NCBI GenBank assembly: GCA_016839705.1
Contig: JAEOTR010000025.1
Span: 18,416 to 82,415 of the forward strand
Source: Promethearchaeota archaeon
GTDB lineage: Archaea; Asgardarchaeota; Lokiarchaeia; Sigyniarchaeales; SOKP01
DNA length: 64,000 bases
Direction: 5' to 3'
In this document: one piece after another, positions 29,460 to 42,758 of the stretch
How positions within the stretch are numbered: the first letter of the stretch is position 1
Layout of the letters: every line of letters starts with the position of its first letter
The notes under the pieces: generated by a model
Seen by the model: the letters and a program-made list of their open reading frames with translations, nothing else
What the model was told of the DNA's origin: nothing
Databases searched by the model: none
Translations under genes and position numbers: made by a program

Positions 29460-30722
29460 ATGCCATCGTCAAAAGAATTTATTGAGATGGATGATAAGTA
29501 TTGCGCACATAATTATCATCCTATACCAGTTGTTATTTCGCGTGCAGAGGGTGTTTGGGTTTATGATCCAGAAGGTAAAAAGTATTTAGATTGTTTATCG
29601 GCATATTCAAGTCAGAATACGGGTCATTGTCACCCAGAAATCATCGCTGCTTTAACGGAACAAGCCAGTATTGTTACACTTACTTCACGAGCTTTTCATA
29701 ATGATAAAATGGGACCATTTTTGAAAATGTTAGCTGAAGTTGTAGGACCACATATTAATGATCCAACAAATTCAGGCATAATGTCTATTCCAATGAATAC
29801 CGGAACAGAAGCGGTCTCTACTGGTCTGAAAATGATAAGAGCTTGGGGGTATATTAAGAAAAAAATTCCCAAAAACGAAGCGGTCATAATTGTATGTAGA
29901 AATAATTTTCATGGTAGAACCATAACTATATCAGGTTTTAGTTCTGACATATCAGCAGTGAGGTATTACGGTAATTTTGGACCCTATACTCCCGGATTTA
30001 AAATAATTCCTTATGGAGATGCTGAAGAACTAGAGAATATTATTATAGATATTGGGCCGGAAAAAGTAGCAGCATTTCTATTTGAACCAATACAGGGGGA
30101 AGCGGGGGTAAACGTTCCTCCTGAAGGATATTTGAAAAAAGTGAGAGAAATTTGTACGAAATATAATGTTCTTATGGTTCTCGATGAAATTCAAACTGGA
30201 TTTTGCAGAACAGGGAAATTTTTTGCCTGCGATCATGAAAATGTGAAGCCTGATATGTTATTACTTGGAAAAGCGCTTGGAGGTGGCATATATCCTGTTT
30301 CAGCATGTGTTACAACTAAAGATATTATTGGTCCTGATGTAATAAAACCTGGTACTCATGGAAGCACCTTTGGTGGAAACCCTTTAGCATGTGCTGTCGC
30401 AATGAAATCAATTGACATTCATTTGCGAGAGAATCTCGCTGAACGAGCAACGGAAATGGGGGCCTACTTTATTAAGAGATTGAGGGAGATTGGTGAAAAA
30501 AGAACTACAATTCCAATAAAAGATATTAGAGGTAAAGGATTACTGATTGCTGTCGAATTCACTGAAGATATCAGGCATATTGTTGAAGAATTAAAAGACA
30601 ATGGCATTTTGGCAAAGGATACACATTCCACGACTATTCGATTTGCTCCACCTTTAGTAATTACACGAGAAGAAATTGATTGGGCTTTAGATATAATAGA
30701 AAAGGTAATTGTAAAACACTAA
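29460..30722 (+). CDS. rocD: Ornithine aminotransferase
   Basis: AHNYHPIPVV, DCLSAYS, TLTSRAF, PMNTG, EPIQGEAG, DEIQTG, GKALGGG, HGSTFGGNPL. Confidence 0.9.
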   Translation: MPSSKEFIEMDDKYCAHNYHPIPVVISRAEGVWVYDPEGKKYLDCLSAYSSQNTGHCHPEIIAALTEQASIVTLTSRAFHNDKMGPFLKMLAEVVGPHINDPTNSGIMSIPMNTGTEAVSTGLKMIRAWGYIKKKIPKNEAVIIVCRNNFHGRTITISGFSSDISAVRYYGNFGPYTPGFKIIPYGDAEELENIIIDIGPEKVAAFLFEPIQGEAGVNVPPEGYLKKVREICTKYNVLMVLDEIQTGFCRTGKFFACDHENVKPDMLLLGKALGGGIYPVSACVTTKDIIGPDVIKPGTHGSTFGGNPLACAVAMKSIDIHLRENLAERATEMGAYFIKRLREIGEKRTTIPIKDIRGKGLLIAVEFTEDIRHIVEELKDNGILAKDTHSTTIRFAPPLVITREEIDWALDIIEKVIVKH

Positions 30723-30763
30723 ATGAATTTATACTATATATCATTCCGTATTTAAAAATAATC

Positions 30764-31675
30764 TTATCCTTTATATATCTGTGTTCCCGCTTTTCCTTCT
30801 AAAGCTTCAATAATTTTATCAATGGAAGTTATTATTGCTTTTTCTCCACCAGATTCTAAAAAATTTATAACTGCTTGAATTTTTGGACCCATACTTCCCG
30901 CGGGAAATTGTTCTTCTTCTAAATATTTCCTTGCTTCAGAGATTGATAATTTTTCTAAATCTTGCTGGTCTTGGGTTCCATAATTAAGAGAAACTTTTTC
31001 TACGTCAGTTGCTATTAATAGAATATCCGCGCCAATTTGTTCAGCTAATTTTGCACTTGCGAGATCTTTATCTATTACCGCTTCAACCCCATAAAGTCTT
31101 TTTTTTTCTTTTATTACAGGAATACCTCCACCTCCGCATGCAATTATGATCCAACTTCCTAATTCCATTAATTTTTTTATCTCACGCCATTGATAAATTT
31201 TTATAGGTTTTGGGGAGGGAACTACTCGGCGATAACCTTTTGCAGTTTTAACATACCCTGGTTTTGGCACTGAATAAGCAGGACCTATTGGTTTAGTGGG
31301 ATTGAGGAATGCAGGGTCTTCTGCATCTACTTTAACATATGTTAAAATCGTAAGGAACAACTTTTCTTCATCAAGGTCGATTTTCATTAGTTCTTCGTCT
31401 AAAGTTGATTCAATCATGAAGCCTATTTGCCCTTGAGTTTCAGCAACTAAGATTTGTAATGGTCTCTTCGAAACTGCCTTTGTAGCTTCTTGTTGTAGCA
31501 ATAGATTTCCCACCTGTGGACCGTTTCCATGAGTTATTATTATATTATATTCCTTAGCTAATTGTGCTATTTGACTTATTGGTACATGCAAGTTCCTGAA
31601 TTGCTCTTCTGTCGTACCTTCATCACCAAATTTTATTAAAGCATTCCCACCCAATGCTACAATTAACGTTTTCAA
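30764..31675 (-). CDS. arcC: Carbamate kinase
   Basis: VALGGNAL, THGNGPQVG, PTKPIG, RRVVPSP, GGGGIPV, VIDKD, GSMGPK. Confidence 0.96.
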   Translation of the reverse strand: MKTLIVALGGNALIKFGDEGTTEEQFRNLHVPISQIAQLAKEYNIIITHGNGPQVGNLLLQQEATKAVSKRPLQILVAETQGQIGFMIESTLDEELMKIDLDEEKLFLTILTYVKVDAEDPAFLNPTKPIGPAYSVPKPGYVKTAKGYRRVVPSPKPIKIYQWREIKKLMELGSWIIIACGGGGIPVIKEKKRLYGVEAVIDKDLASAKLAEQIGADILLIATDVEKVSLNYGTQDQQDLEKLSISEARKYLEEEQFPAGSMGPKIQAVINFLESGGEKAIITSIDKIIEALEGKAGTQIYKG

Positions 31676-41322: not shown

Positions 41323-41414
41323 TTAATTACACCAAATCTAAAATAAAAATATTAAAAAATCATAGAGGCGGATTATAATAAAGATTAAATTACCTATAAT
41401 TTAAAAAAATATAG

Positions 41415-42758
41415 CTACTTTTTTAAGAATTTATTAATAAAATTATCAAGGACTTCTTCGATAGTAGGACTTCCAATTGATTCGATATCATACGATACTT
41501 TCACAATAGGCTTATTTATTTTGATTAATTTGGTTAAATCTATAGGACTTCCATTCAAGATAATATCTGCCTTCACATTATTAAGTGTTTTTTCTAAGTC
41601 GTCTATTTGTTCATCAGTGTATCCCATTGCAGGTACTATTTGTGTAATTTGAGGGAAATCTTCGTAGATTTCTTTCATAGATCCTACTAAAAATTTTCTT
41701 GGATCTACTATTTTTGCTTCTGCGTTTTTAGCAGCAACATATGCAGCTCCAATTGCCATGCCTCCATGAGTTAAAGTGGGTCCATCTTCTACAACTACAA
41801 CTTTCTTTCCCTTCAATCTTAAAGGATCTTCTGCTTTAACCACCGAGTTTGTATAAACTCTTATAGCATTTGGATTTAATTCATCGAGATTTTTTTCCAC
41901 AATTTTAACATCTTCTGGTTTCGCACTGTCCATCTTATTTATTACAAACACATCAGCATATTTAGCATTAACTTCACCTGGGTGATATTTCTTCTCATGT
42001 CCCGGTCTTAATGGATCAACGACTACGAAAAGTAAATCAGTAATATAGAAAGAAATCTCATTATTTCCCCCATCAAAAATAATTACATCTGCTTCTTTTT
42101 CAGCTTCCCTAATTATCTTCTCATAATCAACTCCCGAATAAATCACTAATCCCTGCCTAATGTAAGGTTCATATTCTTCCCGTTCTTCAATAGTGCAATC
42201 GTATTTATCTAGATCCTCATATTTTTCAAACCTCATAACATTTTGTTGAATTAAATCACCATAAGGCATTGGTTCACGAATAGCTACAACTTTGTATCCT
42301 TTACTCACTAAGTATCGATATGTAGCTCTAGAAACTTGACTTTTGCCACATCCAGTTCTTACCGCACAAATAGCAATTACCGGTTTATTAGCTTTAAGTT
42401 GAGTGAATCTCCCAGATATTAATCGATAATTAGCCCCTGCAGCAAGTGCTCTTGAAGCTTTATGCATTACCTCCTCATGAGACACATCTGAATAAGCAAA
42501 CACAACTTCATCGATTTTATGTTTTTTTATATATTCTTCTAAAAGATCTTCAGAAACCATTGGAATTCCATTTGGGTATACATTACCAGCTAGTTCTACG
42601 GGGAATTTTCTTTCGGTTTCTTCTGTTGTACCAACATTTTGTTCACCTGCTATAGTAAATGCAACAACCTCGTATTCTTCGTTATCTCTAAAAACAGTAT
42701 TGAAGACATGGAAATCGTAACCTAATGCACCTATGATAACAACTTTCTTTCTCTTCAT
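41415..42758 (-). CDS. arcE: Arginine synthetase ArcE-like P-loop protein (cyclic 2,3-diphosphoglycerate synthetase-like family)
   Basis: DFHVFN, FAYSDVSHEEVMH, AVRTGCGKSQ, PMPYGDL, CTIEEREEYEP, DGGNN, YHPGE, EDGPTLTHGGM, PAMGY match my recollection of Thermococcus ArcE; arcB, arcC and rocD nearby. Confidence 0.8.
   Translation of the reverse strand: MKRKKVVIIGALGYDFHVFNTVFRDNEEYEVVAFTIAGEQNVGTTEETERKFPVELAGNVYPNGIPMVSEDLLEEYIKKHKIDEVVFAYSDVSHEEVMHKASRALAAGANYRLISGRFTQLKANKPVIAICAVRTGCGKSQVSRATYRYLVSKGYKVVAIREPMPYGDLIQQNVMRFEKYEDLDKYDCTIEEREEYEPYIRQGLVIYSGVDYEKIIREAEKEADVIIFDGGNNEISFYITDLLFVVVDPLRPGHEKKYHPGEVNAKYADVFVINKMDSAKPEDVKIVEKNLDELNPNAIRVYTNSVVKAEDPLRLKGKKVVVVEDGPTLTHGGMAIGAAYVAAKNAEAKIVDPRKFLVGSMKEIYEDFPQITQIVPAMGYTDEQIDDLEKTLNNVKADIILNGSPIDLTKLIKINKPIVKVSYDIESIGSPTIEEVLDNFINKFLKK

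Follow-up and report, generated by a model that had tools for sequence, protein, structure and literature searches.

How does an archaeon that carries genes for the later steps of arginine breakdown, and no recognisable arginine deiminase (ADI), open the pathway? This question is raised by a 64,000-nucleotide stretch of genomic DNA from a Promethearchaeota archaeon (hereafter the window), in which genes for ornithine carbamoyltransferase (OTC; ArcB), carbamate kinase (ArcC) and ornithine aminotransferase (RocD) lie close to a gene for a 447-residue protein with a P-loop. As judged from its sequence and modelled fold, this protein belongs with ArcE, as a close relative of arginine synthetase, and not with cyclic 2,3-diphosphoglycerate (cDPG) synthetase (CpgS), the name that its homologues often bear. 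ArcE was defined in Thermococcus kodakarensis, where it is encoded by TK2200 (Michimori, Yokooji & Atomi, PNAS 2024, PMC11032458; Michimori et al., Front Microbiol 2026, PMC13260591), and the Asgard protein, together with ArcB and ArcC, very probably provides an arginine synthetase pathway that would operate catabolically. The window is part of one contig (C3) of a metagenome-assembled genome (MAG) of 3.36 Mb in 97 contigs, which is 92.99% complete with 6.8% contamination. Genes were called from a listing of open reading frames (ORFs) and from Pfam and NCBIfam profile scans of the window.

The assignment is carried by two alignments. The window protein (P0001) aligns end to end with an orthologue from Thermococcus sp. 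(P0344), with 57% identity over 441 residues and a score of 523 bits, and over its full length with the protein of Pyrococcus furiosus DSM 3638 (P0363), with 56% identity and again 523 bits. The Walker-A segment RTGCGKSQ and the blocks CTIEEREEYEPY, DGGNN and EDGPTLTHGGM are identical in these alignments. The reference proteins are Thermococcus and Pyrococcus orthologues of TK2200, found by querying with the homologue from the complete genome of Aciduliprofundum boonei, which is 80-83% identical to the named Thermococcus and Pyrococcus proteins. P0344 represents 201 sequences clustered at 90% identity, and none of the Thermococcales clusters found falls below 86% identity to it; T. kodakarensis is not listed separately, and its protein most likely lies within this 201-member cluster. 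arcE homologues are known throughout the Thermococcales, P. furiosus being one of the species named (PMC11032458).

That the gene might instead encode CpgS is suggested first of all by the databases. Close homologues at NCBI and JGI are called "cyclic 2,3-diphosphoglycerate synthase", "GTPase" or "predicted GTPase", the first of these names being attached to many of the NCBI entries, and among solved proteins only a CpgS chain (PDB 9sxb) is detectably similar in sequence to the window protein. This similarity comprises a partial alignment of 25.5 bits (E 5e-5), and the Thermococcus orthologue reaches 41.7 bits with the same chain; by sequence, the two proteins are equally remote from CpgS. A Foldseek search with the AlphaFold2 model (pLDDT 87.6) returned CpgS of Methanothermus fervidus (8oru, 8ork) as the best structural match, in which 18-20% of the structurally aligned residues are identical, followed by LpxK (4ehy), which is the nearest solved kinase to this P-loop NTPase fold. 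TK2200p was likewise superimposed on LpxK (4EHY), and CpgS served in that study as a low-similarity outgroup only (PMC11032458). The score of 523 bits against the Thermococcales orthologues, compared to 25.5 bits against CpgS, and a fold like that reported for TK2200p thus place the protein in the ArcE family, and the close similarity to the M. fervidus enzyme that marks a cDPG synthetase is lacking. Homologues of the gene also accompany arcB and arcC in many phyla, and the gene is found in the large majority of sampled Asgard genomes, the source in the present case being marine sediment. cDPG, by contrast, is a thermoprotectant of hyperthermophilic methanogens. Taken together, a CpgS function can be regarded as highly improbable.

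The nearest relatives of the window protein are Asgard MAG proteins with 81-93% identity, and in a midpoint-rooted tree, calculated without a CpgS outgroup, it groups with loci named as Hodarchaeota and Helarchaeota. Members of the ArcE family contain an NKxD-type motif, which is located at residues 273-277 of the window protein (approximately 41928-41942) and reads INKMD here and INKID in Thermococcus. It resembles the G4 motif that confers guanine specificity on GTPases, and this likeness may be the reason why annotation pipelines apply the label "GTPase". TK2200p itself prefers ADP and shows only 8.4% relative activity with GDP (PMC11032458).

A sequence-only reading of the window had proposed that rocD, arcC, arcB and an ArcE-like gene lie within 13 kb, that arcA is missing from the window, that the ArcE-like protein should not group with CpgS, and that automated pipelines would call it a GTPase or a cDPG synthetase. 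The four genes are all present at the positions it gave (Table 1), the ADI profile PF02274 is unmatched both in the window and in the entire genome, and the alignments and homologue names described above bear out the remaining two points. Five genes that are interspersed between the arc genes were not mentioned in that reading, namely those for a Drg/Obg-type GTPase, two proline-dehydrogenase-like subunits, an aldehyde:ferredoxin oxidoreductase (AOR) and an interrupted transporter.

Table 1. Genes of the arginine region, with window coordinates, strand and the profile or structure matches of their products
Gene or product	Position	Strand	Matches and remarks
rocD, ornithine delta-aminotransferase (ornithine--oxo-acid transaminase)	29460-30722	+	TIGR01885, 527 bits (cut-off 378); convergent with arcC
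arcC, carbamate kinase	30764-31675	-	TIGR00746, 370.5 bits (cut-off 358)
CitMHS/ArsB-superfamily transporter gene, between arcB and arcC	31962-33266	-	two ORFs in one frame, single TAA
arcB, ornithine carbamoyltransferase	33357-34289	-	TIGR00658, 356 bits (cut-off 281); Pfam OTCace_N and OTCace
Drg/Obg-type GTPase	34472-35620	+ (opposite strand)	Pfam MMR_HSR1, MMR_HSR1_Xtn, TGS
Proline-dehydrogenase beta-like FAD enzyme, DAO family, 388 aa	35704-36870	-	Pfam DAO, 196 bits; best PDB match 1y56_B (Pyrococcus horikoshii), E 8e-57
Proline-dehydrogenase/sarcosine-oxidase alpha-like Fe-S flavoprotein, 694 aa	36873-38957	-	Pfam Fer2_4, Pyr_redox_2, Fer2_BFD; PDB 2gag_A (sarcosine oxidase alpha), 1y56_A (PH1363)
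AOR-family gene, directly downstream of arcE	39142-41322	-	Pfam AFOR_N and AFOR_C; PDB 1aor, E 5e-52
arcE, arginine synthetase orthologue, 447 aa (P0001)	41415-42758	-	no NCBIfam match; marginal Pfam cobW match

arcE is present in a single copy in the whole genome, and both arcB and arcC lie less than 11 kb from it. The arcB product is the sole OTC in this genome, since the second gene of the OTCace family (contig C88) encodes PyrB. A putrescine carbamoyltransferase was considered for arcB and rejected, as the protein scores 285 bits against a model cut-off of 500. The same neighbourhood bears on the substrate of the enzyme. The window protein differs from the Thermococcales proteins at 43% of positions, and residue-level specificity rules are not available for this family, so that an ArcE-type enzyme acting on another guanidino compound, such as homoarginine, agmatine or canavanine, is conceivable. 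Its conserved neighbours, however, comprise a carbamate kinase, an ornithine aminotransferase and an OTC that passes its own model and falls short of the one for putrescine carbamoyltransferase. These enzymes need citrulline and ornithine, which makes a substrate other than arginine very unlikely.

The association of arcE with arcB and arcC extends well beyond this genome. When the best 80 homologous loci, all of them from named MAGs, were compared with a flank of 8 kb, arcC was found within this distance in 18 loci and arcB in 15, mostly directly adjacent. The linked loci span Acidobacteriota, Aminicenantes, Myxococcota, KSB1, Calditrichaeota, Helarchaeota and Undinarchaeota. In this genome, which has carbamate kinase, and largely also in the Asgard sample described below, an ArcE homologue occurs in place of arginine deiminase.

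In the proposed pathway, ArcE would convert arginine, ADP and Pi to citrulline, NH3 and ATP; ArcB would then split citrulline with Pi into ornithine and carbamoyl phosphate, and ArcC would use carbamoyl phosphate and ADP to form ATP and carbamate. In the breakdown direction the three enzymes would yield two ATP per arginine. Ornithine would be transaminated by RocD to glutamate 5-semialdehyde/pyrroline-5-carboxylate (P5C), and the same route probably also feeds pyrimidine synthesis with carbamoyl phosphate and proline synthesis with ornithine/P5C, as in T. kodakarensis. Catalytic activity, the direction of flux and these physiological roles are what we infer from the genes.

The direction can be approached through the remaining gene content. 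Searches of the genome detected no match to PF02274, no ArgG, no ArgH C-terminal domain, no large subunit of carbamoyl-phosphate synthetase (CPS), no ArgJ, and no ArgC above the cut-off, whereas PyrB and ProC are present. The failure to find ArgG, ArgH, CPS, ArgJ and ArgC favours the catabolic direction. With no route to ornithine, carbamoyl phosphate or argininosuccinate in sight, the gene content suggests an arginine auxotroph that would degrade arginine via ArcE, ArcB and ArcC, in line with what is described for T. kodakarensis (PMC11032458). The search for alternative entry enzymes, which the sequence-only reading had called for, revealed no arcA and no clear arginase. The only clear member of the arginase family (in locus L002, C97:92678-96505) is located between the genes for arginyl-tRNA synthetase (ArgRS) and deoxyhypusine synthase. 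An arginase was rejected for this gene, as agmatinase fits best and deoxyhypusine synthase adjoins it; it probably belongs to polyamine/hypusine metabolism and not to arginine breakdown. A second carbamate kinase (in locus L007, C97:15362-19255) scores 347 bits, just below the arcC cut-off, and directly follows a gene for an FdrA-like acyl-CoA synthetase, an arrangement that recalls the carbamate kinase clusters of the oxamate/allantoin type.

The absence of ArgG and ArgH from the search results could also be read in the opposite sense, with ArcE replacing both enzymes and forming arginine from citrulline, NH3 and ATP. The reaction is reversible, T. kodakarensis can make arginine from citrulline, and a synthetic role of ArcE has been suggested for Syntrophomonas wolfei and others (PMC11032458). 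The proposed synthesisers, however, possess CPS and ornithine synthesis (PMC11032458), while CPS, ArgJ and ArgC were not found here, and the clustering with carbamate kinase and ornithine aminotransferase indicates breakdown. Synthesis as the main direction is therefore considered unlikely.

A different emphasis, compatible with breakdown, keeps the chemical direction and sees the main role of the pathway in supply: carbamoyl phosphate for PyrB and for [NiFe]-hydrogenase maturation, and ornithine/P5C for proline. In this genome the CPS large subunit was not found, while PyrB and ProC are both present; of its three genes of the aldehyde-dehydrogenase family, none matches ProA. Disruption of arcE or arcB in T. 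kodakarensis causes pyrimidine auxotrophy, while disruption of arcC has little effect (PMC13260591), and ArcE provides ornithine for proline in the same organism (PMC11032458). The carbamate kinase and rocD genes in the cluster and the adjoining lysine-fermentation cluster fit energy metabolism, and supply as the main role appears possible, if less likely than energy conservation.

Several points weigh against energy-conserving arginine breakdown by this locus. The activity of the Asgard ArcE is a prediction, and an enzyme that shares 57% of its residues with the Thermococcales proteins could differ from them in kinetics or nucleotide preference; the comparison, moreover, uses Thermococcus and Pyrococcus orthologues as stand-ins for TK2200. 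With a MAG of the given completeness and contamination, "not found" does not equal "absent", and a second match to the arginase family, albeit weak, is present on contig C92. The ArcE reaction is reversible, with a ΔG0' of -6.8 kJ/mol (PMC11032458), and its direction would thus be set by substrate supply. Finally, the sole transporter gene inside the cluster is interrupted by a stop codon.

This transporter gene, of the CitMHS/ArsB superfamily, is split into two ORFs, one corresponding to the N-terminal and the other to the C-terminal half of PF03600. Both lie in a single frame that is broken only by an in-frame TAA at 32739-32741, and the same TAA is present in a DNA contig of run X2. The gene was not found in the arc clusters of the relatives. 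It is apparently a pseudogene and probably a decaying, lineage-specific insertion; its product is a possible carrier of substrate or product. The Drg/Obg-type GTPase gene, which is not found at the corresponding position in three relatives (L008-L010), is probably a bystander.

Directly after arcE, and in the same orientation, follow the AOR gene and the genes for the two-subunit proline-dehydrogenase-like enzyme, an order shared by at least four genera of the family. In the closest relatives the sequence arcE-AOR-PDHalpha-PDHbeta-arcB is conserved (PDH, proline dehydrogenase), and one of them (L009) continues with arcC and rocD, the surroundings of rocD being as in the window. AOR adjoins arcE in all eight genomes of the window's family in which both positions are known, and in seven of these eight arcE and arcB share a contig. 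Two genomes of the same genus (G413 and G453), each 99% complete, lack arcE, AOR and arcB together, so that the cluster behaves as a unit. The whole arcE cluster is accessory within the genus. AOR is not strictly tied to arcE, because another genus (g2) keeps AOR without arcE or arcB.

The closest structural counterpart of the dehydrogenase subunits, 1y56, is the alpha/beta L-proline dehydrogenase complex of P. horikoshii; the depositors' titles read "sarcosine oxidase" and "hypothetical protein PH1363". The three aldehyde-dehydrogenase-family genes of the genome all score below the cut-offs of the P5C-dehydrogenase models. A complete ferredoxin-linked route can tentatively be drawn from this gene set. 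Glutamate 5-semialdehyde would be the meeting point of arginine, by way of ArcE, ArcB and RocD, and of proline, by way of the dehydrogenase, and would be oxidised to glutamate by the tungsten/molybdenum-dependent AOR in place of an NAD-dependent P5C dehydrogenase. Such a role of AOR is somewhat doubtful, and its retention in genus g2 speaks against a strict link to arcE; the connection of AOR to the arginine pathway is putative.

Upstream of rocD, on the plus strand (18641-29331), lie genes for a class-III aminotransferase, a family-III CoA-transferase, a beta-keto acid cleavage enzyme, KamA, KamD and KamE. Two further ORFs of this lysine cluster (22704-23759 and 25840-26940) have no Pfam match. 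The gene set confirms the earlier proposal of an adjoining lysine cluster that extends the locus to an amino-acid region of about 24 kb. The energy-conserving arginine route in an Asgard-like archaeon that was proposed with it is likewise supported, as a prediction, by the placement of ArcE and its gene context, and the closest relatives bear Asgard names.

Near-identical DNA occurs in marine-sediment metagenome runs of one study. In one sediment metatranscriptome run of another study, short contigs are identical to parts of arcE (41798-41941 and 42150-42355) and of arcB (33944-34094 and 34134-34284). These contigs give a weak hint of arcE and arcB transcription; they may stem from DNA carry-over and cannot show transcript structure. 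RNA run X5 contains no contigs over arcC, AOR, the dehydrogenase genes or the body of rocD, gaps that are taken as no evidence in either direction.

The predicted pathway shares several features with that of T. kodakarensis: the full-length similarity of ArcE to its Thermococcus and Pyrococcus orthologues, a P-loop fold with CpgS and LpxK as nearest structures, the partners ArcB and ArcC, the failure to find ADI, ArgG/ArgH or CPS, and homologues labelled as GTPase or hypothetical protein. ArcE homologues are often annotated as GTPase and are sometimes located near arcB or arcC (PMC11032458). The predicted pathway differs in its host, a low-GC (~32%) marine-sediment Asgard archaeon instead of a hyperthermophile, in the assembly of arcE, arcB, arcC and rocD in one 13-kb region, and in the AOR and proline-dehydrogenase-like genes that directly follow arcE. 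Ornithine would be passed to RocD here, while the T. kodakarensis paper gives it only as a proline precursor (PMC11032458), and the activity is deduced here from the genes. With the ADI pathway encoded by arcABC(D), the predicted route has the ArcB and ArcC steps in common, as well as the net reaction from arginine to ornithine, CO2 and two NH3. Its first step, however, would be non-hydrolytic, PF02274 was not found in the genome, and two ATP are expected instead of one; in addition, the cluster contains no intact ArcD-type antiporter, its sole transporter gene being of another family and interrupted. CpgS of M. fervidus (8ork, 8oru, 9sxb) is a distant homologue with the same overall fold and the source of the common database name, and it differs in its low identity and score, its genomic partners and its chemistry.

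The distribution of arcE was assessed in 121 Asgard genomes of at least 80% completeness, with the window protein as query (E <= 1e-30). A homologue is present in 103 of them and in 40 of 46 genera, while full-length PF02274 matches (~440 residues) occur in only two of the 121; the remaining PF02274 matches in this sample are short proteins of 250-320 residues that cover part of the model. These numbers indicate that ArcE instead of ADI is the rule in the Asgard phylum. In another archaeal phylum, a search centred on a "Methanobacteriota" MAG yielded homologues in 164 of 401 genomes; they group with Thermoplasmata-labelled loci and not with any Thermococcales sequence. A representative protein library contains 3009 related clusters. 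Among the further ArcE proteins compared (P0287, P0344, P0395, P0433 and their matches), those of Fervidobacterium and Thermotoga are 72-73% identical to Thermococcus ArcE, and that of Fervidobacterium is 73% identical to the A. boonei protein; some proteins from "Odinarchaeota" and "Asgardarchaeia" reach 71-74% with Thermococcus ArcE. This suggests a thermophile-wide ArcE clade, probably shaped by gene transfer and distinct from that of the window protein, which shares 57%.

Lokiarchaeota are already listed among the holders of arcE (PMC11032458), and a search of the accessible literature on arginine synthetase in Asgard archaea gave nothing beyond this one line in the 2024 paper; a preprint on a Hodarchaeales isolate does not mention arginine. 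The gene is thus a new member of a known enzyme family, which had already been noted in this lineage and proves nearly universal there, and it is not peculiar to this genome. The locus reveals no new kind of enzyme or pathway, and the AOR and proline-dehydrogenase genes after arcE are its most interesting point. Its main consequence is the correction of an annotation error, as hundreds of Asgard proteins that carry the name "cyclic 2,3-diphosphoglycerate synthase" or "GTPase" almost certainly belong to the arginine synthetases. The two-ATP ArcE route, and not arginine deiminase, would be the usual step from arginine to citrulline in the sampled Asgard genomes. This alters the energy yield that metabolic reconstructions assign to these fermenters of amino acids, which are relatives of eukaryotes, and the route may explain the source of carbamoyl phosphate in Asgard members without carbamoyl-phosphate synthetase.

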